A stretch of 64,000 bases of DNA from a virus (IMGVR_UViG_3300030060_004544:6179-70178); one strand, 5' to 3'. Numbered from the stretch's first letter, positions 71 through 15,779 are shown. The notes: generated from the letters alone by a model not told the origin. Numbers and translations are program-made.

Positions 71-1636
71 ATGGAATATAATCAACCTAGTTTGATCGTA
101 AAAGATCTTACATTTAGCAATGATGCTAAGTGGAGAATTATTGAAGGTGTAGAAAAACTGAACAACGCAGTTAAGTCTACACTTGGAGCTTCAGGAAAAT
201 GTGTCATCTATGAAGATGCATTAGGTAAACCGGTGATAACAAAAGACGGTGTAACAGTAGCTGAATCTGTTGTCTTATTTGACCCGGTTGAAAATATAGG
301 TGCAACACTTATAAAAGAAGCGGCGAATAACACTGTGAAAGAAGCAGGTGACGGTACCACTACGGCTACTGTCCTTGCTCATTCGCTTTTAAAAATAGCA
401 AGTGCTAGAGAATCTGATAACGTTAGAGAAATAAAGCAAGGTATTAAAACAGCTACAGACAAAGTAATGACATACTTAGATAAGGTAAGCATCGATGTAA
501 ATGATGACTTGCTTGAAAATGTAGCTACAATATCTACTAATAATGACGAAGAGCTTGGCAAGTTTATATCATCAGCATATAAACAAGTAGGTAAAGATGG
601 TGTAGTGTTAATGGAAGAGTCACCAACAGGAGAAACATATGTTGATGTTGTTGATGGTATACAAATAAAATCTCCGTTAAAATCACCACATCTTGTTACA
701 GATAAAGATAGAGGTGTTGCAGAGCTAGATAATCCTCTAGTATTAATCACATCGTCACCAATACCTAATATACGTAAAATACAACCTATATTAGAACACT
801 GTATAAAGAAAAACAGATCTTTACTTATAGTTGGTGAACTAGAGCAACAGCCTAAAGCAGCATTATTAACAAACAAGGTTAAAGGTAATATAAAGGTTAA
901 CTTTATTGACTTACCTGGCTTTGGTCCTACTAAACAGGATAGCACTGAAGATTTAGCCATAGTAACAGGTGCTAAAGTTATTAATGAAGAGCTTGGTGAT
1001 GACTTTGATCTTATTGATGTAGATTGTCTTGGTGAAGCAGTGAAAACTGTTACAGATGACAAACATACGGTGTTTACTGTAAATAAATCAGGTAAAACCC
1101 TTAAAGATCGTATAAAACAAGTAAAAGATATAATAGGTAAGGAAACTAAAAATCCTTACTTAAAAAAGAAACAACAAGAAAGATTAGCAATACTTAATGG
1201 ATCAGTGGGGATTGTGTTTGTAGGAGCTGATAGTAAGGTAGAACTAAAAGAAAAGAAAGACAGGATAGAAGATGCAATATATGCTACAAAAGCAGCTTTA
1301 CAAGAAGGCATCGTTCCTGGAGGTGGTATAGCGTTACTTAATGCTAGTAACAATATAACGCCTAAAAATGTTGGAGAAGAATTATTATTACAGGCAATAC
1401 AAACACCTTTCAATACAATACTAGATAACGCAGGTATTGAAAAACCTACTAAACTAGTCAAAGGTCAAGGTATAAACGTAGTAACCGGTAAAAAGGTTAA
1501 TATGATTAAGTCTGGAATTATCGATCCGGTTTTGGTTACAAAATCGGCGCTGAAAAACGCTGTATCAGTAGTTAGTACTATTATATCAGCTGATTGTGTA
1601 ATATCTAATATGAGGATAAATGAAAGCAATAAATAG
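71..1636 (+). CDS. groEL: Phage-encoded group I chaperonin (Cpn60)
   Basis: [35 protein letters not shown] and GIIDP motifs; 521 aa; no C-terminal GGM tail. Confidence 0.97.
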
Positions 1637-1877
1637 TTTTTTAGTAGTAGATAAAATAAAAGAAAAGCCTAAAGCCGAAAAGGGATTTGTTTTGAGTGAG
1701 TCTCAAAATGAAGACATTAGGTTCTTAAAAGGCAAGGTGATCAGTGTTGGTGATCAAATCAAAGGTATTAAAGAAAATAATATAGTTTGGTATGATAAAA
1801 ACGCTGGACACGGAATAGAATTTGATGGTAACTACTTCTATGTAATAAAGCACGGGGATGTAGTTATTGTTGAATAG
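1620..1877 (+). CDS. groES: Co-chaperonin Cpn10
   Basis: 85 aa; mobile-loop-like KGFVLS, GKVISVG, C-terminal DVV; overlaps the groEL end. Confidence 0.88.
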   Translation: MKAINSFLVVDKIKEKPKAEKGFVLSESQNEDIRFLKGKVISVGDQIKGIKENNIVWYDKNAGHGIEFDGNYFYVIKHGDVVIVE

Positions 1878-1940
1878 TTAACAATTACAATTTAATATAG
1901 TCGTGCTGAAATTATTGTTTAACCTTTAAAAATTATCAAA

Positions 1941-2270
1941 ATGGCAAAGTTACAAGAGAAATTTTTAATTTTCATCGACGCTGCTGATGATGCTGCAATG
2001 TATCCTTTAAGTAATCTTTTAGGTATTACTGTTGCTTCTGATGGCCAGTTGTTGTTGAAATTTAAATCTTCAGTCGGTGGAAGCACAGGAACTGAGCATG
2101 ATAGCGTTGCTTTGACAATTACTGCTGACACTGAAAAAGCTGTCATGCAATCAATTGCTAAAGCGTGCGGTGATGCTTATTCTGATGCTGCTATCGTTAT
2201 TGCTGATGATGTAAACTCTGTTTACGTTAATAGTAATATTACTGCATGTGCAATCACACTTGATTCATAA
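1941..2270 (+). CDS. Hypothetical acidic protein, possibly a virion component
   Basis: 109-aa ORF with A-rich leader; TAATG coupling to next gene. Confidence 0.7.
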   Translation: MAKLQEKFLIFIDAADDAAMYPLSNLLGITVASDGQLLLKFKSSVGGSTGTEHDSVALTITADTEKAVMQSIAKACGDAYSDAAIVIADDVNSVYVNSNITACAITLDS

Positions 2271-2710
2271 TGCGAATAGACGCACAAGATTTGCGTGAAA
2301 TGAAACTGTTTAAGTATTACAGGCTCGTTAGAAAATGGGCCTGTAAAACTTACGGTTTAACAGACGCGGACCTTGAACTTTTGATATATTTAGACTGTAA
2401 AGACAGATTTACACGACAAGAGTTTATCGATGGCGTATATACAATGTCATGGGATAAACAGCGATGGGAACGATTACGATCACAAGGTTGGATCGAAGTA
2501 TGGAGACATCGCAACCGCACTTCAATTAAATTTTCTATTTTTAAAACTTCATTTAAATGTTCGCAATTAATAAGCAGAATATACCGCATACTATTAGGTG
2601 AGGAAGATTTACCAACTAGTGAGCGAAGTATATTTTTTAACAACAAATCATACACCGATAAAGTATTTAATAAAGCTATTGATGATATGATTAAAGATAT
2701 AGATCGATAA
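2270..2710 (+). CDS. Hypothetical protein, possible winged-helix DNA-binding fold
   Basis: GLTDADLELLIYL...RLRSQGWIEVW resembles a MarR-like wHTH. Confidence 0.55.
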   Translation: MRIDAQDLREMKLFKYYRLVRKWACKTYGLTDADLELLIYLDCKDRFTRQEFIDGVYTMSWDKQRWERLRSQGWIEVWRHRNRTSIKFSIFKTSFKCSQLISRIYRILLGEEDLPTSERSIFFNNKSYTDKVFNKAIDDMIKDIDR

Positions 2711-2728
2711 CAATTAAAATAAAAAATT

Positions 2729-3091
2729 ATGCCAGGAAAACACTACGATAATATGAAGCCTGAAAAAAGAGGGCCATATCTTATGAAACCAGGAGAAAAC
2801 AGTATGCCATCAAAGTTTGAAAAAGTAAACTTTAGAGATTCTGATTTAAAGAAAGCTGAAGGATTTCCAAACATGTATCCACAAAATTTTAACGCAGCTA
2901 GAGTTGCCGCTGTAAAAGCAGGTAAAGACTCTTTTAATGTAGGTGGTAAAGAATTTAAGGTAACTAGCAAAGCTGGTGCTGAAATGCATCATGCTGGACT
3001 GTATAAACCAGAAATGAAGCCTATGAAGTTTGCATCTGATGCACAAAGAAGAGCTGCATTTGCTAGTGGATACAAAGCCAAGGGTAAATAA
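2729..3091 (+). CDS. Hypothetical Lys/Pro/Met-rich protein
   Basis: 120-aa ORF with AAAAATTATG leader. Confidence 0.65.
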   Translation: MPGKHYDNMKPEKRGPYLMKPGENSMPSKFEKVNFRDSDLKKAEGFPNMYPQNFNAARVAAVKAGKDSFNVGGKEFKVTSKAGAEMHHAGLYKPEMKPMKFASDAQRRAAFASGYKAKGK

Positions 3092-3096
3092 AAATA

Positions 3097-3261
3097 ATGG
3101 CTAAAGCCTACCGTGGAGTACTAAAAGCTCGTATAAACAAATTATACGGAGGCGATGTAACCTGTGGTAAAGTTAAAAAGCTAAAGTCACGTAAAGGCGC
3201 GACTAAAAGAGATGTACAACTAGCAAATTGGTTTATCAATATGCACGACTGTAAAATATAA
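3097..3261 (+). CDS. Small basic hypothetical protein (54 aa, not in ORF track)
   Basis: MAKAYRGVLKARINKLYGGDVTCGKVKKLKSRKGATKRDVQLANWFINMHDCKI; fills the gap and is TAATG-coupled to the next ORF. Confidence 0.7.
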   Translation: MAKAYRGVLKARINKLYGGDVTCGKVKKLKSRKGATKRDVQLANWFINMHDCKI

Positions 3262-4274
3262 TGGGAATATTTAGCACTAAAAACAAATTTAAAATGGACG
3301 CGCTCAGAATAAAAGAGCGAGGTACCAAAGACACGCCAACTAACTTTTCAGAAAAAGCTGTAGCTTTTATGAAAGGTATGCCTGGTTATTATCCTCAAAT
3401 GCACGAAACAGATGCTGAAGGAAATAAAAAAATCCACGAAGACGATATAACAAATATAAAAGTTGTAGAAGGCGAAGGTGGTAGAAAACTTTATGGTGAA
3501 ATACTTGGTGATAAAAAGTTTGTTGGAGAAAAATCTGAAGATGTTTATGATGCTCTACAAAAAGAAATAGACTCTGGTTTTGCAGCAGAAAAAGGTTTTA
3601 AAGGCACTGATGTAAAAGAGTATGAAAAGTTCAAGCTTGATAAAATGGAAGGTAAAGATATTGAGCAAGAAAAAATAGAGGTTGAAAAAGAAATAAAGGA
3701 CGATACATTAGGTGGTACTAAAAAAGAAATTAAAGAAGTTGAAAGAAAAGAAAACTTCTTTGAAGGATTTGAAAACCAGTTTGAAATAGATGGTTCAAGA
3801 GGTGAAAATAAAGTATTATCAATACCTGTTGACTTTTCCGGTGGTAAATTAGATTTTAAAAGCGGTAAGACCATGAGATACTTACAAAGTAAAGATGGTC
3901 AAAAAATAGTAAGAGGTATGTCTGATATGTTAGGTAATATACAAAATGTTGTAAAAGAAAAGATACTAAGTAACATGTCAGATAGAGATAAAAAGATATT
4001 GGAATATTTTCCTGAAAGACTTAACGGTAGAGTTGAAAATGCTTTAAATAGTATTTTTGATGTAGGTCCTAATGATTCTAGAGCTTATGGTATAGCTAAT
4101 CCTTTATTTGCTATTATTGATACATATGCTAATAAACCTGAAAAACTTCAACAAATATTAGGTTCTCTTGGTTTAACACAAGAAGCAGGCACGGTTACAG
4201 AGCAACAAGAAGTTGAAACATCTACTGCTGGCACAGAGGGTTATGAAACTAACTGGAGACAAAGAAGAGACTAA
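3261..4274 (+). CDS. Hypothetical charged protein
   Basis: 337-aa ORF with TAATG overlaps at both ends. Confidence 0.7.
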   Translation: MGIFSTKNKFKMDALRIKERGTKDTPTNFSEKAVAFMKGMPGYYPQMHETDAEGNKKIHEDDITNIKVVEGEGGRKLYGEILGDKKFVGEKSEDVYDALQKEIDSGFAAEKGFKGTDVKEYEKFKLDKMEGKDIEQEKIEVEKEIKDDTLGGTKKEIKEVERKENFFEGFENQFEIDGSRGENKVLSIPVDFSGGKLDFKSGKTMRYLQSKDGQKIVRGMSDMLGNIQNVVKEKILSNMSDRDKKILEYFPERLNGRVENALNSIFDVGPNDSRAYGIANPLFAIIDTYANKPEKLQQILGSLGLTQEAGTVTEQQEVETSTAGTEGYETNWRQRRD

Positions 4275-4672
4275 TGAGCAAAATATTATCAAAAATCTTT
4301 GGTGACGCAGGTGGTAATGTTGTAGACAAGCTAGCTGGCGTTGCTGATAGATTCATAAGAACAAAAGACGAGAAAGCAAATTTTGAAAAAGAAATGACTC
4401 AGATATTTATTGAAGCTGAGTCTCAAATGCAAAAAAATGTCACCGAAAGGTGGAAAGCAGATTTAGAGCACGGAAACTGGTTAACGCGTTCAGTTCGTCC
4501 TCTCGTACTAGTATTCCTAATAGTGGCGACCGTGCTCATGGTATTTATAGATAGTGGATCTTTAGCATTTAACGTAGAAGAAAAGTGGACAGATTTACTT
4601 CAAATAATCTTGATCACCGTCATCGGATCCTATTTCGGCGGACGTAGTATCGAAAAAATAAGAAAAAAATAA
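4274..4672 (+). CDS. Holin, 3TM/GTA-holin-like
   Basis: RWKAD...WLTRSVRP followed by two hydrophobic helices and YFGGRSIEK basic tail. Confidence 0.75.
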   Translation: MSKILSKIFGDAGGNVVDKLAGVADRFIRTKDEKANFEKEMTQIFIEAESQMQKNVTERWKADLEHGNWLTRSVRPLVLVFLIVATVLMVFIDSGSLAFNVEEKWTDLLQIILITVIGSYFGGRSIEKIRKK

Positions 4673-4673
4673 T

Positions 4674-5021
4674 ATGCCTAAAATTAGTAAAATACAAGTA
4701 GACACTACCATCAATGATGGAGACAAGGTTTTAGGTTCTGATTCGTCAGGAGCAACTAGAAATTATACTTTAAAGCAAATAGCTGATTTCGTAGTTGAAT
4801 CAGGAGGATCACATAAACATCATCAAAACACAGACAGTGATACATGGACAATAGATCACGGTTTAGAGTTAGATGGTTATATACCAAGTGTCACCGTTAG
4901 ATTAGATGACGGAACACATGCTGATGTAGGAGCTTTTGGACAAGTAAAATACATCACTAAAAATCAATTAAAAATTTTCTTTGCAGCTAGTTATTCTGGC
5001 TTCGCATACATTAATAAATAA
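4674..5021 (+). CDS. Putative virion/tail-fibre accessory protein
   Basis: TWTIDHGL...PSVTV module typical of phage fibre adaptors. Confidence 0.55.
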   Translation: MPKISKIQVDTTINDGDKVLGSDSSGATRNYTLKQIADFVVESGGSHKHHQNTDSDTWTIDHGLELDGYIPSVTVRLDDGTHADVGAFGQVKYITKNQLKIFFAASYSGFAYINK

Positions 5022-5037
5022 AAACAAATAAAAAACT

Positions 5038-6918
5038 ATGGCAATACCTATTTTAAATCATTTAAACGTTAAAGGTAATATAAACCTTAACGATTATAAG
5101 CTTAACGATTTTGTCGTAGATCATTCTACCGAGGGCGATGCCGGTAATACTACAGGGAAGCTGATCTACGATTCAGGAACGTTAAAGTATTACGATGGCT
5201 CCGCGTGGCAGTCATTAGGAACTTCTTCAGGAACAATGAGTTCTTTTCAGTTAGAAGATGGAGATGGAGATGAAGTTACAATCTCAGACGCAAAAGAAGT
5301 TAAATTTATAGACGGTGCAGGTTTAAATATAAACTGGACAGACACATCTCATGGTACAGACGGTGATCCTTATGATCTTACATTTGAAATTGCATTATCT
5401 ACTAGTGACTTTACTAAACCCGCACCAGCTGATGGTGATGTGCTTTTAACATTAGACAGTGATGGATCAACCACTCAATTTACAGGTGTAGCAGAGCTTG
5501 CAACTTTATTTGCAGGAACTGGCTTAACAGCAACAAGCGGTGTTATCGCGGTTGACACGCTTAACCAAGATACTACTGGTACAGCTGCTAACGCAACAAA
5601 TGCTGCTCATGTAAGAGTTACTGATAATGAAAATACAGATGAAAATAATTTAATCACATTTGTTGAAGACGCAACAAGCTCTACTGGTGATGTAGGTCTT
5701 GAAATGGATGGTGATTTCCATTATAATCCTAGCTCTGGTACTGTAACCGCTACAATATTTAAAGGTAATATAGATGCTGTTGATGGTGATTTTGATGGAA
5801 CGTTAGAAGCAGATGCTTTAACAATTGGAGGCGTTGCAATAGCAGAATTTATACAAGATACTGTTGGAGCAATGTTTACTAGTAATACAGAAACAAGAAT
5901 TTCAGCAACCTATGAAGATGATGATGGAACTATAGATCTTGTTGTAGATGATATGACAGCTAACGATGATGTAGATGTTAATATTGCTAACTTAACAGCT
6001 AGACTTCCTCAAATTACAGAAAGTGTTACAATTGGTGATGCGACAGATGTTACTGTAACAACATCAGGTAACTTAGTTGTAACTGGTGATTTAACTGTAT
6101 CAGGTGATACTGTTTCAGCTAACGTAGCAACTTTAGATGTTGAAGATAAAAATATAACATTAAACAAATCAGGTGGCGATTCTAGCTCAACAGCAGACGG
6201 CGCAGGTATTACTATTCAAGATGCGGTAGATGCTTCAAATGACGCTACGTTATTATGGAACGCATCAAATGATAAATTTGTATTTTCACATTTAATAGAA
6301 GCACCAGGAACATCTATATTTTCTGCTCTTGATGTATCCGGTAATGTTGATATTGACGGAACAACTAATCTTGACGCTGTTGATATTGATGGTAATGTAC
6401 AATTAGACGGAACATTAAGCGTTGGTGTTGATGACACGGGTTATGATGTTAAATTCTTTGGCGCTACAGCTAGTAAGTACATGTTATGGGATGCTAGTGC
6501 GGATACTTTAATATTAACTGGAGAATTAGATGCCGGTTCATTAGATATTTCTGGTAACGCAGATATTGATGGTACATTAGAAGCTGATGCGATTACTGTC
6601 GATGGAACAGCACTTGATACGGTTATTGATAACAGAATTAAGGTTGTACAAAAAACTGCAACTATAGACGTTAGTTCGTTAACAAGTAACGTAAATAAAT
6701 GTAGCATTACTCACAGTATGAACTCAACTAACTTAATTATTAAGTTGTACGATAGCGTTACATTTTTAGATGTCTTCGCAGATGTTGATAGACTTAGTGT
6801 AAATCAAATACAAGTTGTTTTCTCTCATCAACCTAGTAACGACATTATAGTTGTTATTCAGGAAATAATTGGAGACAATATTGCCGCGGGATCAAATATT
6901 ACATACCCTGGCTCTTAA
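5038..6918 (+). CDS. Putative tail fibre / virion fibre protein, strongly acidic
   Basis: 626 aa, D/T/G-rich; GNLVVTGDLTVSG and VEDKNITLN fibre motifs; internal repeats DGTLEADA x2 and LD(V/I)SGNxDIDGT x2. Confidence 0.75.
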   Translation: MAIPILNHLNVKGNINLNDYKLNDFVVDHSTEGDAGNTTGKLIYDSGTLKYYDGSAWQSLGTSSGTMSSFQLEDGDGDEVTISDAKEVKFIDGAGLNINWTDTSHGTDGDPYDLTFEIALSTSDFTKPAPADGDVLLTLDSDGSTTQFTGVAELATLFAGTGLTATSGVIAVDTLNQDTTGTAANATNAAHVRVTDNENTDENNLITFVEDATSSTGDVGLEMDGDFHYNPSSGTVTATIFKGNIDAVDGDFDGTLEADALTIGGVAIAEFIQDTVGAMFTSNTETRISATYEDDDGTIDLVVDDMTANDDVDVNIANLTARLPQITESVTIGDATDVTVTTSGNLVVTGDLTVSGDTVSANVATLDVEDKNITLNKSGGDSSSTADGAGITIQDAVDASNDATLLWNASNDKFVFSHLIEAPGTSIFSALDVSGNVDIDGTTNLDAVDIDGNVQLDGTLSVGVDDTGYDVKFFGATASKYMLWDASADTLILTGELDAGSLDISGNADIDGTLEADAITVDGTALDTVIDNRIKVVQKTATIDVSSLTSNVNKCSITHSMNSTNLIIKLYDSVTFLDVFADVDRLSVNQIQVVFSHQPSNDIIVVIQEIIGDNIAAGSNITYPGS

Positions 6919-6932
6919 TAAATAATCAAATA

Positions 6933-6970
6933 AATATAGACGGTGCTACGGTACCGTCTGTATTATTTTA
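6933..6970 (+). terminator. Stem-loop with cUACGg tetraloop, probable intrinsic terminator
   Basis: AATATAGACGGTGC-TACG-GTACCGTCTGTATT followed by ATTTT, just after the fibre gene. Confidence 0.7.
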
Positions 6971-6980
6971 AATAAAATAT

Positions 6981-7382
6981 ATGGCAATACAGTTTTTGCA
7001 AGACACACTTATAAACGGTCATTTTAGTTTCCAGGAATCTGCATTTACAAGTGTAGTAGCTAGTGGTAATACACATACTGTAGACTTAACCGCAGACACT
7101 AATAACTATAAGGTAATTGCAAATAATGCAACAAACACCTTGGCTTTTAGTAATTTAAGCGATAAAGTTATTGGTAAAACAGGCTCTATAGCTATCCAAA
7201 ATCCAGCTAGTGTAGGATCTTTAGGTTGGGCAGCTTTACCCGCTACAGCTTATACTCCAGGTGGTGTAGCTATATCATTTGACACAAGTTCAAACGGCAT
7301 AGCTGTTATTTCTTACCTTGTAATGTCAGCAAATAAAGTATTAATAAACTATGTAGGAGACTTTGGTAGTTATCCTCAGTAA
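6981..7382 (+). CDS. Small beta-rich virion protein, candidate anchor for the Thr-rich filament
   Basis: 133 aa; VDL...N...TLAFSN...GKTGSIAI...W pattern of phage fibre adaptor domains; 11 nt upstream of zipper gene A. Confidence 0.55.
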   Translation: MAIQFLQDTLINGHFSFQESAFTSVVASGNTHTVDLTADTNNYKVIANNATNTLAFSNLSDKVIGKTGSIAIQNPASVGSLGWAALPATAYTPGGVAISFDTSSNGIAVISYLVMSANKVLINYVGDFGSYPQ

Positions 7383-7393
7383 AATCTAATTTA

Positions 7394-10288
7394 ATGAAGT
7401 GGTTATGGAATAAAATAGATTTCTGGAATACCGCGACTAGCAGAAGCACAACAGTTAGTACTTCTAAATCGACGGCTACAAGCAAATCCACAACTACTAC
7501 TTTTAACACAAGTAAGAGTACTACAACGGTATATAATACAAGTACTAATACTACAACTACTTTCAATACTAGTAAAAGTACAAGTACTGTTTTTAATACT
7601 AGTACTACAACTACTTTTGAAACTTCTAGGGAAACTACTGTATCAACCAGTAGATCAACTAGCACAGAGTTTAATACTAGCACATCTACAACTACAACCT
7701 TTGAAACTAGTAAGTCAACCACGACTACTTTCAATACTAGCACAACTACAACATTTGAAACATCTAGGCAGACAACAGTCTCTACTAGCAGATCAACTAC
7801 AACTACATTTAACACAAGTAAGTCTACAACCACTACTTTTGAAACTAGCAAGAGTACTACTACAACCTTTAATACAAGTACAACAACAACTTTTAATACT
7901 AGCAGGGAAACTACAATATCAACAAGTAGAACTACTCAAACTGCATATAACACTAGTAAAAGTACAACTACTATTTACGAAACTAGCAAAAGTACTACTA
8001 CTACATTTAACACTAGTACTACTACCACTTTTGAAACTAGTAGGGATACTACTGTGTCAACTAGTAGAAGTACAACAACAACTTTCAATACTACAAAAAG
8101 TACTACCACTACTTTTAATACAACAAAAAGTACTAGTACAGTATTCAATACAAGTACTACAACGACTTTTAATACAAGTAGAGAAACTACTATAAGTACA
8201 TCAAGATCAACTCAGACTACGTTTGCTACTAGCAAGTCTACATCTACTGTTTTCAATACTAGCACAACCACTACGTTTAATACAAGTAGAGAAACAACTA
8301 TAAGTACGTCTAGAAACACTACTACAACGTTCAACACTAGTAAATCTACATCTACAGTATTTAATACTAGCACGACTACTACTTTTGAAACAAGCAAACA
8401 AACAACTGTTTCAACTAGTAGAAGTACTACTACCACATTTAATACTAGCAAGAACACAACTACTACTTACAACACGACAAAGTCTACTAGTACGGTTTTT
8501 AACACAAGTACCACTACCACTTTCAACACTAGTAGAGAGACTACTATATCTACATCTAGATCTACAACGACTACGTTTAATACTAGTAAAAACACTACAA
8601 CGACTTTCAATACAACAAAGTCAACTAGCACTGTGTTTAATACTAGTACTGTTACAACGTTTAACACAACTAGAGAAACTACAGTATCAACTAGTAGAAA
8701 CACTACAACAACCTTTAATACAAGTAAAAATACGACAACTACGTTTAATACTACTAAGTCTACAAACACTGTATTTAACACGTCTACTACAACAACATAC
8801 AATACCACTAGAGAAACAACTATTTCAACTAGTAGAAACACAACAACAGTATACAATACTACTAAGTCTACGACCACAACGTTTAATACTACTAAAACAA
8901 CTAATACTGTATTTAACACAACAACTTTAACTACGTTTAGTACAACTACAACATATAATACAAGTAAATCAACTGCAACTAGCAGAAACACTACTGTATC
9001 TACTACTAGAACTACTGAAACCGCGTACAATACTACTAGAACTACACAAACTACTTTTAATACTTCAACAAGTACATCAACAAGTAGAGAAACTACTATA
9101 AGCACTAGTAGAAGCACCAACACTGTTTTTAACACAACTACACTGACAACATTTGGCACGCAAACAACTTTTAGCACTTCTAAGTCAACTCTTACTGTTT
9201 TTAATACTACTACTTTAACCACGTTTAATACAACAACGACTTTCAATACCACTAGGTCTACGAACACTGTATTTAACACCACTACTTTAACTACGTTTAA
9301 CACGGTAACAACTTTTAATACTACTAGAGATACTACTACGATATTTAGCACAACAACGTTAACCACGTTTGATACCACAACAACATTTTCTACTAGTACA
9401 CTAACAGAAACAATTTACAACACTAGTACTACTACTACCACTACAACAACGTTTAACACCAGTAGAAACACATCGGAAAGTAGAACTACAAGTACTACAA
9501 CAACATTTTCTACAACGACAGTTTTTAACACAACTAGAACTACTAACGTTAATTATGTTGTATGGGATGTGCAACAAGGAGATAGTAGTACTCTTGGTGC
9601 AGGTTATATATACAAACAAAACATATCACCTACTGGTGGAAGTAACATTGCTGCAAGTGAGGTTAGATTTAATAACCAACTTCCTGAAAATGCTAGTAAA
9701 GTATATATACATGAAGAAGATGATACAGGTTATAACCTTTATAACGCGTTTTCAAATGTAATGAATTTTGTTAACGCTGGTGGTGGAAATTATGCTAGAT
9801 TTCTTATAGCTGCTGACGTACTTCAAAAAGCTATTTCTTTTAAAGTTACCGGTGGATCATATAATTCTACTTTAGATTATTTTGAATTTGATCTAGCTGA
9901 AAACATATTTGTTGACACAGTTAAGTGTCCAGGTTATAACACATTTGTCTTAGAAGCAGGTGATACAAAATTAGAAGTATGGATGTGGAGAAGTGATGGT
10001 GCTGGTGGATACAGTACAACTACTACAACTACGTTTAGCACAAGTACGTTAACAACATTTAACACTGTAACAGTATATAACACTAGTAAAAGTACACAAA
10101 CAACGTTTAGTACATCTAAATCTACATCAACAAATAGAAATACTTCAGAAAGTAGAAGTACAACTACAACTTTTAATACTCTAAGATCAACCATAACACA
10201 ATACAATGCGTTTACTTTATACAATACATTTAGATCAACATTTACATCAGGCGGCGGTGGAGGCGGCTGTAGTAGAGGTTGTATATAA
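7394..10288 (+). CDS. Thr/Ser-rich repeat protein A (putative beta-zipper filament chain with an inserted globular domain)
   Basis: 964 aa: Trp-rich N-terminus, about 700 aa of TSKSTTTTFN/TSTTTTFN/TSRETTVS units, about 155-aa non-repetitive domain (9548-10012), second Thr-rich tract, ends GGGGGGCSRGCI. Confidence 0.85.
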   Translation: MKWLWNKIDFWNTATSRSTTVSTSKSTATSKSTTTTFNTSKSTTTVYNTSTNTTTTFNTSKSTSTVFNTSTTTTFETSRETTVSTSRSTSTEFNTSTSTTTTFETSKSTTTTFNTSTTTTFETSRQTTVSTSRSTTTTFNTSKSTTTTFETSKSTTTTFNTSTTTTFNTSRETTISTSRTTQTAYNTSKSTTTIYETSKSTTTTFNTSTTTTFETSRDTTVSTSRSTTTTFNTTKSTTTTFNTTKSTSTVFNTSTTTTFNTSRETTISTSRSTQTTFATSKSTSTVFNTSTTTTFNTSRETTISTSRNTTTTFNTSKSTSTVFNTSTTTTFETSKQTTVSTSRSTTTTFNTSKNTTTTYNTTKSTSTVFNTSTTTTFNTSRETTISTSRSTTTTFNTSKNTTTTFNTTKSTSTVFNTSTVTTFNTTRETTVSTSRNTTTTFNTSKNTTTTFNTTKSTNTVFNTSTTTTYNTTRETTISTSRNTTTVYNTTKSTTTTFNTTKTTNTVFNTTTLTTFSTTTTYNTSKSTATSRNTTVSTTRTTETAYNTTRTTQTTFNTSTSTSTSRETTISTSRSTNTVFNTTTLTTFGTQTTFSTSKSTLTVFNTTTLTTFNTTTTFNTTRSTNTVFNTTTLTTFNTVTTFNTTRDTTTIFSTTTLTTFDTTTTFSTSTLTETIYNTSTTTTTTTTFNTSRNTSESRTTSTTTTFSTTTVFNTTRTTNVNYVVWDVQQGDSSTLGAGYIYKQNISPTGGSNIAASEVRFNNQLPENASKVYIHEEDDTGYNLYNAFSNVMNFVNAGGGNYARFLIAADVLQKAISFKVTGGSYNSTLDYFEFDLAENIFVDTVKCPGYNTFVLEAGDTKLEVWMWRSDGAGGYSTTTTTTFSTSTLTTFNTVTVYNTSKSTQTTFSTSKSTSTNRNTSESRSTTTTFNTLRSTITQYNAFTLYNTFRSTFTSGGGGGGCSRGCI
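7436..9529 (+). repeat. Coding tandem repeat array of 80 even-length peptide units (46-aa and 36-aa super-repeats)
   Basis: 10-mer blocks occur in order 4,3,3,3,3,2,2,3,3,3,3 separated by 8+8 units; synonymous codons are diversified. Confidence 0.9.
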
Positions 10289-10299
10289 AATTAAATAAT

Positions 10300-11331
10300 A
10301 TGAATATACCTTATAGAACATCGGATACGCAACAAAATTATCATGCAGCTGATTTAACTTTTCGTGAAAATGGAGACATAGTCTGGACTAACCCTGTTAC
10401 TAATGAGATATGGGAAGTTATGATGGAGTGGGAAATACCAATCATGCAAAAAGCGGCAGAGGTGTGTGTTGACGCTGGTGCAGATGTTTTAGAGTGTGGT
10501 TTTGGCATGGGTATATTGTCAGACGCTATACAAGCTAGAAACCCAGGTACTCACACAATATGTGAAACGCATCCTCAAATAATACCTAAATTAAAAGCTT
10601 GGGCTGCAGATAAACCTAATGTAATTATCGTTGAAGACAAATGGTTGAGTTTGTTAAACGAGCGTAAAGGTTATGATGCAATACTAATGGACACATATGC
10701 AGACCCTGATTTACACCCTCATTTTAGATATTTTGTAAAACAAAAAGCAAAAGACGGAGCTAAAATAACATGGTGGAATTATAGTGGTGGAACAACAGAT
10801 GAGTATATGAAGTTTCACTGGGACGATGTAGTATTTCATAATGTAGCTATATCTCCACCTGAAAATCAGTATTATAATAGAAACGTGTATCCTGTTCCTG
10901 TTAAAGTTTACAATAGAGAAACAGGTTTTGGTGTATTATCAAGCTCTAGTTTTAATATAAGCGAAACAGAAAGCAAAGATCTACATGAAGTTAAATCATT
11001 TTTAACTTGTGATGTTTCAAATGGAACAAAAAGCGTTAAAAGTGTTGAAGGTGTTGAGAGATTAGCGATGTATTGCGAAGGTTTGTACACTTTAAATGAA
11101 AATTTAGTTATAGCTGGTTCACATCCTATATACGTAAAAAGAAATAATCAATGGACTACAGTTAAAGTAAATGAACTTGTAATTGGTGATAAACTATATG
11201 GTAAAAATGGAGAGGTTGAGCTAACAAGTAAAACTTTTGATTCGTCTGAAACAACAAGACAAATATATAAAGTAGTGCTTAATAACTATTTTGTTAACGA
11301 TATATTAGTGAAAGGAGGGTCTGATGCCTAA
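10300..11331 (+). CDS. RMT2/GAMT-like class I SAM methyltransferase fused to a degenerate Hint domain
   Basis: VMMEWEIPIM, VLECGFGMGI, HTICETHP, YDAILMDTY; C-terminal GSHPIYV...W..V..L.IGDKL...NYFVNDILV Hint pattern; ATG 10300 preferred over TTG 10279. Confidence 0.8.
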   Translation: MNIPYRTSDTQQNYHAADLTFRENGDIVWTNPVTNEIWEVMMEWEIPIMQKAAEVCVDAGADVLECGFGMGILSDAIQARNPGTHTICETHPQIIPKLKAWAADKPNVIIVEDKWLSLLNERKGYDAILMDTYADPDLHPHFRYFVKQKAKDGAKITWWNYSGGTTDEYMKFHWDDVVFHNVAISPPENQYYNRNVYPVPVKVYNRETGFGVLSSSSFNISETESKDLHEVKSFLTCDVSNGTKSVKSVEGVERLAMYCEGLYTLNENLVIAGSHPIYVKRNNQWTTVKVNELVIGDKLYGKNGEVELTSKTFDSSETTRQIYKVVLNNYFVNDILVKGGSDA

Positions 11332-13768
11332 TACTACTACTGTTTTCGGAACATCGAGGTTAACAACAATATCTGATTTTACTAATACTACTGTTTCTAC
11401 CAGTAGAAATACTACAACTACTTACACTACTAGTACTGTATACAATACGACAACTACTTTTAATACTACTACTAGTACAACCACTACGTATAATACTACT
11501 AAATCCACATCAACATCAAGAAATACTAGTTGGGCTACTAGTAGAAGTACTAGCACGGTTGTAGGTGCAGATATGGATGATGATGTAATGACTTTTTACA
11601 ACACTAGTACAAATACTTTAACGTCTAAAAGTACAAACACCACAACAACATACACTACAAGCACTACGTATCCTACAAGTAGATCAACAACAACAACTAC
11701 AAACTACAACACAAGTACTATTACGACAGAATCTAGTAACACTACAAGAGCTACATCAACTAGCAGAAATACTAGTTATGAAACTAGTAAAACTACAACT
11801 ACTACTTACAACACTACAAAATCTACATCAACAAGTAGAAACACCACTATTAGTACAAACAACAATACAACTACTACTTATAACACTACAAGAACTACAT
11901 CAACAAGTAGAAATACAACCGTATCTACTAATAGAAATACAACTACTACTTTCAACACAAGTACTATTACACAGACAAGTAGAAACACTTCATACAGCAC
12001 AAATAGAGATACAACAACGACATTTAATACTAGTACAACAACTACATTTAATACTACAACAACTTACAATACTAGTAGAAATACAACTACAACCTTTTCA
12101 ACAAGTACTAACACCGTAACTACGTTTAACACGCAGACGTTGACAACTTTTAACACTACAACTACTTTTAATACTAGTACTAATACGCAAACTAGTAGGA
12201 ACACAACTGTGTCTACAAATAAAAATACTACTACAACTTTTAACACAACAAAATCTACTACAACAACGTTTAATACGTCTAAATCAACAACAACGACGTT
12301 TAATACATCTACTACAACGACTTTTAACACGTCTAGAACAACAACTATTAGTACGAATAAAAATACCACTACAACGTTTAACACAACGAGAAGTACTCAA
12401 ACAACTTTTGCTACAAGTAAAAGTACTAGTACTGTGTTCAATACGTCTACAGTAACAACATTCAATACAAGTAGAACAACAACTGTTAGTACAAGTAGAA
12501 ATACAACAACAACCTTTAATACTACTAGGTCAACTCAAACTACATTTGCTACTAGTAAAAGTACCACAACAGTATTTAATACGAGTACAACTACTACTTT
12601 TAATACATCTAGATCTACCACGGTAAGTACAAGTAGAAACACCACGACTACTTTTAATACTACTAGAACTACGCAAACTACTTTTGCTACTAGTAAATCA
12701 ACTACTACAGTGTTTAACACCAGTACGACTACCACGTTTAACACATCAAGATCTACAACTATTAGCACAAGTAGAAATACTACAACTGTATACGCTACTA
12801 GTAAATCAACAACTACTACGTTTAATACGTCTACAACGACAACTTTCAACACTAGTAGATCTACTACAGTATCTACAAGTAGAAATACAACTACGACTTT
12901 TAATACTAGTAAAAATACAACCACAACATTTAACACTAGTACAACAACTACATTTAACACTAGTAGATCAACGACTGTTTCTACCAGTAGAAATACTACG
13001 ACTACGTTTAATACAACTAAAAGTACTACTACGACGTTTAATACTTCTAAAAGTACTACAACCGTATTTAACACATCAACTACGACAACATTTAATACTA
13101 GTAGGTCTACTACTATAAGCACATCTAGATCTACGACTACAATATTTAATACAAGTAAGTCTACTACTACTACGTTTCAAACAAGTACTAATACCACTAC
13201 GACTTTTAATACAAGTACGACTACCACTTTTGAAACTAGTAGATCAACAACTATAAGTACGTCAAGAAGTACAACGACCACGTTTAATACAACTAAATCT
13301 ACTACGACCACATTCAATACTAGTAAGAGTACAACAACGGTGTTTAATACTTCAACAACAACTACTTTTAATACTAGTAGAAGTACTACTGTTAGTACTA
13401 GTAGAAGTACAACAACTACTTTTAACACAACAAAAGCAACAACTACAAACTACAACACAAGTACTGACACGACTACTACTTTTAACACTAGTACGACTAC
13501 AACTTTTAATACCACTAGAGTTACAACAGTTAGTACGTCTAAAAATACTACGACTACATTTAACACGACTAAAACTACACAAACAACTTTTAGTACAAGT
13601 AAGAGTACCACCACAACTTTTAACACAACAAAGAGTACTACTACAATATTTAACACTACTACAGTGTTTAATACTAGTACAACTACTACGTTTGAAACTA
13701 ATACTAACTGGTATGATGGTGATCCTGGTAATTATGGTCAATTAGGTGATGTATCCTTTGATAGGTAG
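11324..13768 (+). CDS. Thr/Ser-rich repeat protein B (mirror partner of protein A)
   Basis: 814 aa of the same unit alphabet; short acidic loop GADMDDDVM; ends NWYDGDPGNYGQLGDVSFDR. Confidence 0.85.
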   Translation: MPNTTTVFGTSRLTTISDFTNTTVSTSRNTTTTYTTSTVYNTTTTFNTTTSTTTTYNTTKSTSTSRNTSWATSRSTSTVVGADMDDDVMTFYNTSTNTLTSKSTNTTTTYTTSTTYPTSRSTTTTTNYNTSTITTESSNTTRATSTSRNTSYETSKTTTTTYNTTKSTSTSRNTTISTNNNTTTTYNTTRTTSTSRNTTVSTNRNTTTTFNTSTITQTSRNTSYSTNRDTTTTFNTSTTTTFNTTTTYNTSRNTTTTFSTSTNTVTTFNTQTLTTFNTTTTFNTSTNTQTSRNTTVSTNKNTTTTFNTTKSTTTTFNTSKSTTTTFNTSTTTTFNTSRTTTISTNKNTTTTFNTTRSTQTTFATSKSTSTVFNTSTVTTFNTSRTTTVSTSRNTTTTFNTTRSTQTTFATSKSTTTVFNTSTTTTFNTSRSTTVSTSRNTTTTFNTTRTTQTTFATSKSTTTVFNTSTTTTFNTSRSTTISTSRNTTTVYATSKSTTTTFNTSTTTTFNTSRSTTVSTSRNTTTTFNTSKNTTTTFNTSTTTTFNTSRSTTVSTSRNTTTTFNTTKSTTTTFNTSKSTTTVFNTSTTTTFNTSRSTTISTSRSTTTIFNTSKSTTTTFQTSTNTTTTFNTSTTTTFETSRSTTISTSRSTTTTFNTTKSTTTTFNTSKSTTTVFNTSTTTTFNTSRSTTVSTSRSTTTTFNTTKATTTNYNTSTDTTTTFNTSTTTTFNTTRVTTVSTSKNTTTTFNTTKTTQTTFSTSKSTTTTFNTTKSTTTIFNTTTVFNTSTTTTFETNTNWYDGDPGNYGQLGDVSFDR
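11603..13696 (+). repeat. Coding tandem repeat array of 80 peptide units, reverse order of 7436-9529
   Basis: 10-mer blocks in order 3,3,3,3,2,2,3,3,3,3,4; 2094 nt, the same length as the array in gene A. Confidence 0.9.
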
Positions 13769-13821: not shown

Positions 13822-14715
13822 ATGGAAATGTTTAATAGACGTGAGTTGGACAAAAGAATTGGCCATCTCAAAAAAAATAAAAAACTTGAAAGTTTAGAAC
13901 AAGTAGAAGGATACTTTATAAGAAAGTGTACTGAAGCTGGTATTGATTTTAGCTATGATGTTATGGCTGATGAAATGCCTCATTTTAAAACTTTAGCATA
14001 TACTGAGTTTGCTACTAGTTTTTACATGCAACCTCTAAACACAAAACTTAGATACGCTCAAATGATTGACGCATACGATGATGATTGTGATGTTGTTGAT
14101 TACTCATCTTATTTAATTGAAAATGTTATGAGTAAAAATGCTAATAAGTATCAAGATAGAGACTCTAAGTTTGATCAATATGAGCCGAAAGATAATATTG
14201 TTATATTACCTGGCTCAAATAAAGTAAAATCCAATATTTGCTTAAACAGATTAAAGTTTTTAGCAAATAAACATGGTAATAACATGTATTTTAAGCCACA
14301 TCCTATAACAACACATCAAATTATAGGTGAGTTAAAAGACTTTTTTGGCGACCAAAATATATTACCAAGGGATATAGATATGTATTATTATTTACAAAAA
14401 GCAAATAACGTATACACTACTCATATTAGTGAAAGTATGATATACGCGGCTGTTTTAGGTAAAAAAATTGAACCTATTGACGTTTGGAATAACATACAAA
14501 TGGGATCTTTTTATTGCATTAACAACCATTTGCTTGATAATCAACATGATATTAAAAATTATATCAATAAGTGTTTTTCAAGTCCAAAGTCTGGTATTAT
14601 AAACCCAGCTGTAGACAAAAATTGGAAAGAAAAAATAGATAAATACTTACAATACATACTTAAAAAACGAGAAATGTACAAAGACTGGTTTATAGCTGAA
14701 CCAAAAAAGAAGTAA
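13822..14715 (+). CDS. KpsS/KpsC (capsule synthesis)-like GT-B glycosyltransferase, probable CMP-sugar donor
   Basis: YFKPHP motif followed by LQKANNVYTTHISESMIYAAVLGKKI, matching the K.HP ... L...D.V.T..S...EA...GK.V pattern. Confidence 0.6.
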   Translation: MEMFNRRELDKRIGHLKKNKKLESLEQVEGYFIRKCTEAGIDFSYDVMADEMPHFKTLAYTEFATSFYMQPLNTKLRYAQMIDAYDDDCDVVDYSSYLIENVMSKNANKYQDRDSKFDQYEPKDNIVILPGSNKVKSNICLNRLKFLANKHGNNMYFKPHPITTHQIIGELKDFFGDQNILPRDIDMYYYLQKANNVYTTHISESMIYAAVLGKKIEPIDVWNNIQMGSFYCINNHLLDNQHDIKNYINKCFSSPKSGIINPAVDKNWKEKIDKYLQYILKKREMYKDWFIAEPKKK

Positions 14716-15005: not shown

Positions 15006-15201
15006 CATAGGTAGAGATTACAAGAACGATGCAATGCATTATTCAGTTGGTCAAGAAGTTTATGGTAATCATATTATATGTGACATCATAGAATCTAAAG
15101 ACAAGTTTAGTGTTTTAATTGAAAAAAACAACGAGGTTTTACCTTGGAAAGATTTTAATAAAAACATGGCTGTATCAGTTGAATATAATCTTGAGTATTA
15201 A
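14983..15201 (+). CDS. Hypothetical protein
   Basis: MKLIRKISIG...; TAATG coupling to next gene. Confidence 0.7.
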   Translation: MKLIRKISIGRDYKNDAMHYSVGQEVYGNHIICDIIESKDKFSVLIEKNNEVLPWKDFNKNMAVSVEYNLEY

Positions 15202-15779
15202 TGAAAGGAACGTTTTATTTTTTAATAAAACCTAAAACGCAACGATACAATAATACCAAGAAAATTGGTGATAAAGAACTTATTTTAAACTCTGAAATTT
15301 ACAACCATCAATATGTTAGCCGTGAGGCTGTTGTTGTAGGTTTACCTTCAGAGTTTAACTCACCAATTGAAGAAGGTGATGAAGTAATCGTGCATCATAA
15401 TGTATTTAGAAGATGGCACGATGCAAGAGGTAGAGAGCGTAATTCAGGTAGTTATATAAAAGAAGATTTATACAGAGTTAGTGTAGATCAGATATTTGCT
15501 TATAAAAAAATAGTAAACTGGCAAGCTTTACCAGGTTATTCATTTATAAAGCCCACACAAAAGCAAGATGGATCTGAAGCCGATCAAATAGGTATTGTAA
15601 AATATTCCGATGGTAGTTTTAAAAAAGGCGAACTAGTAGGTTATAATAAAGCAGCTGAATATGAGTTTATTATAGGCGCTGAAAGATTATACAGGGTTCC
15701 AAACATTTTTATTGAAATTAAATATGAGTACAAAGGAAAAGAAAAAGAATATAATCCAAGCTGGTTACAGAGCGGTTGA
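15201..15779 (+). CDS. GroES-like protein, probably two tandem domains
   Basis: FLIKP...ELIL...AVVVGLP...IEEGDEVIV then FIKP...GIVKY...KKGELVGY, i.e. the Cpn10 strand pattern twice. Confidence 0.5.
   Translation: MKGTFYFLIKPKTQRYNNTKKIGDKELILNSEIYNHQYVSREAVVVGLPSEFNSPIEEGDEVIVHHNVFRRWHDARGRERNSGSYIKEDLYRVSVDQIFAYKKIVNWQALPGYSFIKPTQKQDGSEADQIGIVKYSDGSFKKGELVGYNKAAEYEFIIGAERLYRVPNIFIEIKYEYKGKEKEYNPSWLQSG

Follow-up and report, generated by a model that had tools for sequence, protein, structure and literature searches.

An uncultured marine phage encodes a GAMT-type methyltransferase fused to a catalytically dead Hint domain in its tail-fibre region

The MT-Hint gene and its conserved neighborhood

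The stretch of viral DNA analyzed here (IMGVR_UViG_3300030060_004544:6179-70178; 64,000 nucleotides, hereafter the window) makes up most of a 70,178-bp IMG/VR virus record that is rated 100% complete, and contains a gene, denoted MT-Hint, for a protein that combines an N-terminal methyltransferase domain of the guanidinoacetate N-methyltransferase (GAMT) family with a C-terminal Hint domain. The genome also encodes GroEL, a holin, a GroES-like protein, the large terminase and the portal protein; its kinship with Flavobacterium podophages is distant (~72% identity across 0.5 kb of the terminase gene). The source is an uncultured marine phage, and MT-Hint is located in its tail-fibre region between the genes for two Thr/Ser-rich repeat proteins, A (7394..10288, + strand; 964 aa), which contains a single globular insert (residues ~718-869), and B (11324..13768, + strand; 814 aa), which has the N-terminus MPNTTT.

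The MT-Hint gene occupies positions 10300..11331 (+ strand) and encodes 343 aa from its ATG. Because the homologs start at MNIPY, this ATG, which sits 11 nt past the stop codon of A (TAA, 10286-10288), is most likely the true start, as predicted from the sequence comparison; position 10250, where the gene was made to begin in the preliminary description, falls within the tail of A. The ORF caller placed the start at a TTG (10279), yielding 350 aa, and all residue numbers below count from this codon. At the other end of the gene, an 8-nt overlap (ATGCCTAA) joins the ATG of B to the MT-Hint stop.

A pattern scan of IMG/VR detected at least 484 contigs that encode relatives; the clade and cassette counts given here rest on the best 80. 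Among these, 29 loci encode the Hint-fused form, and in 27 of the 29 the gene is flanked on both sides by Thr/Ser-rich giants; of the other two, L024 runs off its contig, and L026, which starts where its contig does, has a frameshift in B. B starts with MPNTTT or MANTTT, and the overlap is -8 nt in all 27 Hint-fused loci where B is visible. Thus, MT-Hint is the middle gene of a conserved A - MT-Hint - B cassette and is translationally coupled to B.

The C-terminal tail of A (10247..10285, + strand), SGGGGGG-C-S-R-G-C-I, fits the pattern Gn-C-x-R-[G/N]-C-x-stop. The poly-Gly stretch and the CSRGCI end had been pointed out before, and A indeed ends SGGGGGGCSRGCI. The same pattern terminates A in 27 of 28 Hint-fused loci, and across the 23 distinct tails two glycines, both cysteines and the arginine are invariant (R 23/23). 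When the whole viral collection was scanned with a degenerate DNA pattern built on nothing but the tail, 16 contigs were retrieved, in every one of which the methyltransferase gene lies directly 3' of the tail (16/16); 15 of these contigs were already in the methyltransferase list, and the sixteenth (L104) likewise has the gene after the tail. In the six-frame translation of the window (218 frames), the tail of A is unique and contains the only CxR[GN]C motif, and among 805 other frames of the surveyed loci, just 6 have tails with poly-Gly and Arg. There is a tight link between MT-Hint and the Gly-rich C-x-R-G-C end of A. The functional tie to the flanking Thr-rich proteins that had been proposed earlier gains support from the strict synteny of the cassette.

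The methyltransferase domain

The four N-terminal motifs that had been read as signatures of a guanidino-methyltransferase are all present, namely VMMEWEIPIM (residues 47-56), VLECGFGMG (70-78), HTICETHP (92-99) and YDAILMDTY (132-140). A phmmer comparison with the solved GAMT chains of the PDB gave an E-value of 4e-11 for residues 47-184. In the AlphaFold2 model of MT-Hint (33 homologs; mean pLDDT 89.2), residues 12-212 superimpose on GAMT 1xcj with Z 21.1 and rmsd 2.9 over 195 residues, against Z ~15.5 for the best non-GAMT methyltransferase, and Foldseek concurs (GAMT 3orh, E 4e-10). These results go well beyond chance and bear out the GAMT-type call for the class I S-adenosylmethionine (SAM) methyltransferase domain (PF27704, GuanidinoAc_N-MeTrfase; 10312..10914, + strand; residues 12-212). 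PF27704 is precomputed on 91 of 93 homologs and is the family named in the Atlas rows; for the window protein, the Pfam family is taken from these homologs. An NCBIfam search with MT-Hint gave methyltransferase matches at noise level only, a PHROGs search found no family for MT-Hint, A or B, and tblastn against 50,697 phage records returned one distant match, in an uncultured 635-kb phage. The search revealed no longer fused forms of the protein, which is weak evidence.

The phmmer alignment pairs E52 (10432..10434, + strand), E96 and D138-T139-Y140 (10690..10698, + strand) with E45, E89 and D134-T135-Y136 of GAMT, respectively; we take E45 and D134 to be the acids that hold the guanidino group and to have catalytic roles. 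Among 98 distinct two-domain sequences (73 library proteins, 29 proteins from the loci and the window protein, with duplicates removed), E52, E96, Y140 and two glycines of the GxGxG loop, G74 and G76, are each conserved in 98/98, T139 in 95/98 and D138 in 94/98. In the two methyltransferase-only clades described below, E52 is kept in 21/21 (clade I) and 17/17 (clade II) sequences, D138 and T139 are invariant in both, and E96, Y140 and the two loop glycines are likewise kept. Judging from these alignments, the SAM-binding glycine loop and the residues aligned to E45 and D134 of GAMT are intact. The likeness to GAMT (EC 2.1.1.2; 1xcj, 3orh, 1khh) thus covers the fold, including the N-terminal region, as well as these residues. 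MT-Hint differs from GAMT in being viral, in its location in a tail-fibre cassette, in its fusion to Hint, in its low sequence identity (~22-25%) and in that its genome encodes no partner amidinotransferase.

The Hint domain has lost its catalytic residues

The C-terminal domain (10921..11328, + strand; residues 215-350) had been suspected to have the Hint fold, and this assignment proved correct. The modeled domain, with pLDDT ~83-97 across most of its length, superimposes on the bacterial-intein-like (BIL) domain of Tetrahymena BUBL, BIL2 6y75, with Z 18.3 and rmsd 1.9 over 132 residues, on the Clostridium thermocellum BIL 2lwy with Z 17.6, on inteins with Z 15-17 and on Hedgehog 1at0 with Z 15.8, with all of these alignments spanning residues ~215-350. 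A direct Pfam scan found PT-HINT alone, below the cut-off (E 0.12; 13 bits against 27.7). A phmmer search of 1.8 billion proteins with residues 215-350 retrieved 43 proteins at E <= 0.001, among them Hint proteins at E 1e-10 to 1e-8; the ten hits from outside the family that were scanned all have Hint-family Pfam matches, 8 of the 10 above the curated cut-off. MT-Hint therefore resembles the BIL and PT-HINT proteins in fold, block order and C-terminal location of the domain, and shows sequence similarity to proteins with PT-HINT, Hint_2 and Intein_splicing domains. It differs from these proteins in that the domain preceding Hint is an enzyme and not a secreted or toxin domain, and in that the residues required for catalysis are lacking.

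The motifs on which the preliminary description had based its dead-Hint call are found as described, namely GVLSSSSFNISETESKDLHEV from residue 218, AGSH at 279-282 and the end ...ILVKGGSDA. Position 1 of Hint, Cys in active relatives, is G218 (10930..10932, + strand), as indicated by the MAFFT alignment with active relatives and by the structural ranges of Hedgehog C258 and of residue 1 of 4oz6; positions 217 and 219 likewise lack Cys, Ser and Thr. According to the alignment with active relatives, AGSH (11113..11124, + strand) replaces TxxH of block B, and K345-G346 (11311..11316, + strand) replaces the terminal His-Asn. Throughout the 98 sequences, position 1 is Gly (97) or Ala (1), and the position of the penultimate His is occupied by K (56), R (29), G (9), Q (2) or a gap (2), never by His; Asn is found at the terminal position in 9/98, and the proteins end 3-6 residues later. 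The block B positions are more variable, with T 77, S 10, A 9 and V 2 at that of Thr, and H 47, Q 33 and other residues 18 at that of His. Thus, the nucleophile and the penultimate His are absent in 98/98, and the preliminary description's question whether fused homologs keep an active Hint is answered in the negative.

Inteins that lack Cys1 are described as requiring another nucleophile, which in class-3 inteins is a Cys of block F (PMC2807308). The only conserved Cys columns of the domain, C244 and C266, both lie in its N-terminal half and covary (CC in 77 sequences, SA in 10); with no conserved Cys in the C-terminal half, the class-3 mechanism was rejected. With Cys1 and the penultimate His absent, the terminal Asn gone in most sequences and no alternative Cys nucleophile conserved at the class-3 site, the domain cannot self-cleave and is dead family-wide; by the residues present, the Hint of the MT-Hint family has lost every residue needed for self-cleavage. 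We refer to it as the pseudo-Hint. Pairing of C244 and C266 with the two cysteines of the A tail was also considered and discarded, given that loci with Ser and Ala at these positions still have the CSRGC tail.

The last Hint codons (K-G-G; window 11308..11331) read AAAGGAGGG, beginning 12 nt 5' of the ATG of B. The terminal D-A-stop of MT-Hint overlaps M-P-N of B, and loci with D-G-stop pair with a B that starts with M-A-N. Because these alternative endings track the start of B, the conservation of the Hint C-terminus may in part reflect the overlapping coding sequence along with a ribosome-binding-like site.

The nearest active relatives of the pseudo-Hint (P0097-P0107) are metagenomic proteins with 2-5 tandem Hint domains separated by HNKGGGGCF junctions, some of which have CAP or Tim44-like ends. 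The tail of A resembles the poly-Gly/Cys junctions of these arrays (e.g., in P0106), and it is conceivable that this junction supplies a nucleophile to the Hint scaffold, which would promote an N-to-S acyl shift in trans, with release of the C-terminal hexapeptide or ligation of A to another protein such as B. Apart from the junction-like tail, the frequent retention of the block B Thr (77/98) and His (47/98) is compatible with such chemistry. Against it, the block B His is replaced in 51/98 sequences (Gln in 33), the window protein lacks the block B Thr and no conserved catalytic residue is left. Furthermore, the domain is not split, because it has its own complete first strand, which aligns fully with those of active relatives; the idea that CSRGCI of A provides the missing first strand of Hint was dropped for the same reason. 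We consider Hint chemistry in trans to be very improbable.

Three clades of the methyltransferase family

A quick IQ-TREE phylogeny of the methyltransferase domain (80 rows) resolves three clades. Clade III (36 rows, support 96) contains all 29 Hint-fused genes together with a nested lineage (L028, L037-40, L045) that has lost Hint; in L037-40 and L045, the cysteines are missing from the tail of A as well, and the next ORF is a second one with distant likeness to the methyltransferase, whereas in L028 both the Thr/Ser-rich flanks and the Gly-rich tail are absent. Clade II (19 rows; support for II+III 99) consists of methyltransferase-only genes located between a large fibre-like gene and a gene for a BACON-domain protein of ~190-210 aa. 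The latter is conserved inside the clade, is unrelated to A by BLASTP and in 17 loci ends Gn-RG-xx-P. In clade I (25 rows), the gene is placed likewise, and the conserved partner encoded downstream of it is particular to this clade. Clades I and II lack the Thr-rich A and B proteins, which the preliminary description called zipper proteins, and therefore the methyltransferase family is older than these proteins. Outside viruses, the methyltransferase domain has distant relatives (29-49% identity), none with the Hint part, in at least 9 cellular loci from metagenome-assembled genomes (L082-L090; Alphaproteobacteria, Chlamydiae, Gammaproteobacteria and others).

The position of the gene is constant: in all three clades it fills the slot after a fibre gene. 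In all 29 Hint-fused loci, and in the 15 of 51 methyltransferase-only loci whose neighbors were read, it belongs to a tail-fibre module and directly follows a fibre-like gene, usually with coding sequences that overlap or abut. This setting bears on the view that the protein is the product of an auxiliary metabolic gene (AMG), i.e., a free guanidinoacetate N-methyltransferase or small-guanidino methylase that reprograms host metabolism (K00542). Membership in the Pfam GAMT family, the best structural match with GAMT, lid region included, and the retention of the residues aligned to the substrate-binding acids all speak for an AMG, as does the lack of a nearby Gly-Arg tail in clade I, and in UniProt a phage homolog is named 'putative guanidinoacetate methyltransferase'. 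Moreover, viral GAMT is described as the most enriched AMG of the oceans (85.4-fold) and is read there as an enzyme of creatine synthesis (PMC11360552). The tail-fibre location, the fusion to a protein-type domain and the link to the tail motif of a neighbor in 16/16 contigs argue against a metabolic role, as do the few confirmed cellular relatives (at least 9, all distant) and the fact that the complete 70-kb genome encodes no amidinotransferase family (PF02274) to provide guanidinoacetate. On balance, an AMG appears distinctly unlikely. Because of the constant tail-fibre position and the missing amidinotransferase family, the published creatine reading looks doubtful for the MT-Hint family, whose identity with the viral GAMT of PMC11360552 is only presumed. 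The location of the gene beside a conserved partner in every locus read points to a structural or maturation role, which would change the reading of the ocean GAMT signal.

Self-cleaving modules in related loci and the origin of the pseudo-Hint

A search with B identified 77 loci with Thr-rich repeat proteins, 6 of which have an HMM hit within 2.5 kb, with many flanks being short. Among the 71 B-like loci without a nearby hit, whole records were searched for 50, leaving out ten that match only the last 19 residues of B (mostly known cassette contigs) and eleven of L170-L181 (L172 being among the ten); 3 of the 50 records are >=90% complete. None of the 50 contains the methyltransferase domain, and one (G032) matched the Hint part only. 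Loss of the gene from most zipper loci, which the preliminary description had regarded as telling against its proposal, is thus seen in part, in records that are mostly fragments and whose similarity to B is of low complexity.

In the contig matched by the Hint part (G032/L182), an A-like protein (1211 aa; 920..4555) ends in an apparently active Hint domain with Cys1, TxxH and HN, followed after HN by a 27-residue Cys-rich peptide and then by a B-like gene (4595..7000). This 78.5-kb contig encodes no methyltransferase and carries a collagen-like Gly-x-y fibre gene upstream. The same layout, a Thr-rich A-like protein with Hint in cis, is seen in P0115. In the family of the clade II partner, P0105 and L183 have a C-terminal active-type Hint, with no methyltransferase between them and the fibre gene. 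Small fibre-module proteins in L183 (2670..4993), P0105, P0127 and P0101 end in an active-type Hint (...HNK-stop) after an S74-type tail fibre, and in methyltransferase-bearing loci the same small-protein family ends Gn-RG-xx-P instead of Hint. Finally, in L148 (region 2189..7083), a relative that shares the backbone and is complete at 68 kb, the poly-Gly of A is directly followed by a motif, SDRRLK, similar to that of Peptidase_S74 (E 0.034, a weak match). Between A and B of this phage lies only a 191-aa ORF that does not match the methyltransferase HMM and whose kinship was judged by eye from the sequence; the homologous ORF of L037 (8552..9109) is a distant relative of the GAMT-like domain (HMM E 1.9e-5).

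In these phages, fibre-module proteins thus have poly-Gly ends to which a self-cleaving module may be appended. Because such related proteins carry Hint in cis or S74-like ends, the pseudo-Hint most likely derives from one such self-cleaving C-terminal module, as suggested by these sequence relationships. The analogy extends to Peptidase_S74, the self-cleaving chaperone of tail fibres and endosialidases, by way of position: apart from L148, the fibre upstream of the clade II-type partner in L183 has the S74-type motif SDRKLK, and the upstream fibres of clade II share with the L183 fibre only a coiled-coil-like ...EAVKELK... ending. The two modules have different folds and are not homologous, and S74 acts in cis and cleaves itself, whereas the pseudo-Hint would act in trans and is inert. 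By this analogy, the pseudo-Hint may correspond to an S74-type module that acts in trans.

A role in assembly without a specific link to the tail arginine would follow along these lines: the pseudo-Hint would replace a cis intramolecular chaperone and assist the folding or oligomerisation of A and/or B, and the methyltransferase would act elsewhere, on repeat arginines of A and B, on another virion protein or on the N-terminus of B. The assembly-factor role envisaged in the preliminary description receives indirect support from the cis self-cleaving modules found at the same place, Hint in G032 and P0115 and S74-like in L148. It also fits that the gene follows a fibre gene throughout the three clades, that it is tightly coupled to B, and that ~37 Arg of A and as many of B stand in TSRxT contexts. 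The S74 match, however, is below the Pfam cut-off (14.9 vs 22 bits), and a chaperone role alone leaves the fully conserved catalytic residues of the methyltransferase unexplained. Arg and Lys also interchange freely in the repeats (for instance, between B and its homolog in L004, 11 basic repeat positions changed from R to K against 22 that remained R), which implies that an Arg-specific modification of the repeats is not conserved. We consider this form of the assembly-factor explanation somewhat unlikely. The same interchange, along with the invariance of the tail Arg (23/23) and the greater age of the methyltransferase family compared with the zipper proteins, is at odds with the earlier proposal that zipper arginines are methylated for the tuning of cation-pi pairing.

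Proposed function of MT-Hint

Taken together, these observations suggest that MT-Hint probably modifies or helps assemble the neighboring fibre proteins rather than making creatine. Specifically, we tentatively propose, as a possibility that falls short of probable and is drawn from sequence features, that the pseudo-Hint docks the enzyme on the tail of A for putative methylation of the invariant Arg. Under this proposal, the dead Hint would have descended from the cis self-cleaving C-terminal Hint of fibre-module proteins; acting in trans, it would recognize the C-terminus of A and serve for docking or as a chaperone. The tail, in which poly-Gly is followed by Cys as in a Hint junction, would be read by the pseudo-Hint, and docking would position the methyltransferase on the tail arginine, a candidate protein substrate because a Gly-flanked Arg in a flexible tail could enter a pocket like that of GAMT. 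If the chemistry is analogous to that of GAMT and yeast Rmt2, the methyl group would be placed on the internal (delta) guanidino nitrogen, and the modification might serve fibre maturation or receptor binding. A broader version of the docking proposal, in which a pseudo-intein captured by a GAMT-type enzyme became a targeting domain that reads Gn/C-x-R-G-C for putative Arg methylation, is offered with more reserve, as rather doubtful.

Eukaryotic protein arginine methyltransferases (PRMTs) act on Gly-Arg-rich (RGG) motifs, and in the candidate target of A, too, the Arg precedes a Gly within a flexible, Gly-rich tail. The enzyme lineage and the predicted nitrogen differ, however, and there is no PRMT among the 50 listed structural matches of the MT-Hint model. 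Neither a Hint domain nor a Gly-rich tail substrate is known for Rmt2, which is comparable to MT-Hint, going by its published description, in the protein-arginine chemistry proposed. This GAMT-related yeast enzyme is reported to convert Arg67 of ribosomal protein L12 to delta-N-methylarginine and, unlike MT-Hint, is described as specific to fungi and plants (PMC3365026). As for methylation of virion proteins, the mycobacterial host enzyme MepM is reported to methylate a mycobacteriophage tail protein, a modification needed for cell binding and adsorption; the methylated tail protein is the point of likeness, whereas MepM is host-encoded, belongs to another methyltransferase type and is described as acting at an ELS motif rather than an arginine tail (PMC13445384). 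Structural proteins of Cellulophaga phages bear methylated Lys and Arg, and these phages were stated to be 'not known to encode methyltransferases' (PMC13288928). Our literature search found no report of a methyltransferase-Hint fusion or of a phage arginine methyltransferase in a fibre module; the architecture is new, and both component domains are already known.

Several observations weigh against docking on, and methylation of, the tail of A. The model aligns with GAMT through the N-terminal lid region (residues 12-212 against chain positions 10-235) and therefore fits an enclosed small-molecule pocket. Clade I keeps the active-site residues, yet its neighbors lack a Gly-Arg tail, so the common substrate of the family may differ. 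On the tree, the gain of Hint coincides on a single branch with the appearance of the Thr-rich flanks and of the CxRGC tail, and the association among them therefore amounts essentially to one event followed by retention. The exception among the 28 Hint-fused loci with respect to the tail pattern, L011, has a poly-Gly tail with one Arg that ends DAP. Furthermore, a Gly-rich ...P tail may be no more than the mature end of a protein that in other loci carries a cleavable module. Prediction of a complex between MT-Hint and the last 50 residues of A scored 0.15 against a mark of 0.32 and weighs neither way. In the model of the C-terminal 265 residues of A (mean pLDDT 50), only the insert is folded and the tail is disordered.

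If the docking proposal is true, MT-Hint would be the first protein-arginine (delta-N) methyltransferase known to be encoded by a virus, and the 'most enriched viral AMG' of the oceans would be a virion-maturation enzyme and not a gene for creatine synthesis. A Hint domain that is stripped of catalysis yet strictly conserved, together with a junction-like tail on the neighboring protein, would clearly exemplify the conversion of an autoprocessing domain into one for recognition. For this possible first phage protein arginine methyltransferase, the invariant arginine between glycines offers a candidate substrate open to direct test.

Repeat proteins and other genes of the region

Proteins A and B have a common repeat grammar, with aromatic and K/R residues spaced 10, 8 or 18 positions apart and nearly all of the common spacings even; this pattern fits long beta-strands with one aromatic/basic face. 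A wide structural search with the model of the C-terminal 265 residues of A gave a best Z of 5.9 and no clear fold for the globular insert, and an ESM Atlas search with B retrieved unnamed viral clusters only. The N-terminus of A (MKWLWNKIDFWNT) is found again in L037 and L148.

Downstream of B, the next ORF (13822..14715, + strand; 297 aa) belongs to phrog_26179, a family of unknown function, and has no Pfam match; it lies directly 3' of B in the window, L026, L104 and L148. It is followed by a 79-aa ORF and then by the GroES-like gene, both of which are common to clade I and clade II phages. GroEL (71..1636; phrog_5725, E 1e-131) and the GroES-like protein (15201..15779; E 3e-13) thus share the genome with the giant repeat proteins, and the structural region holds an ORF of 2298 aa (35097..41993, + strand).

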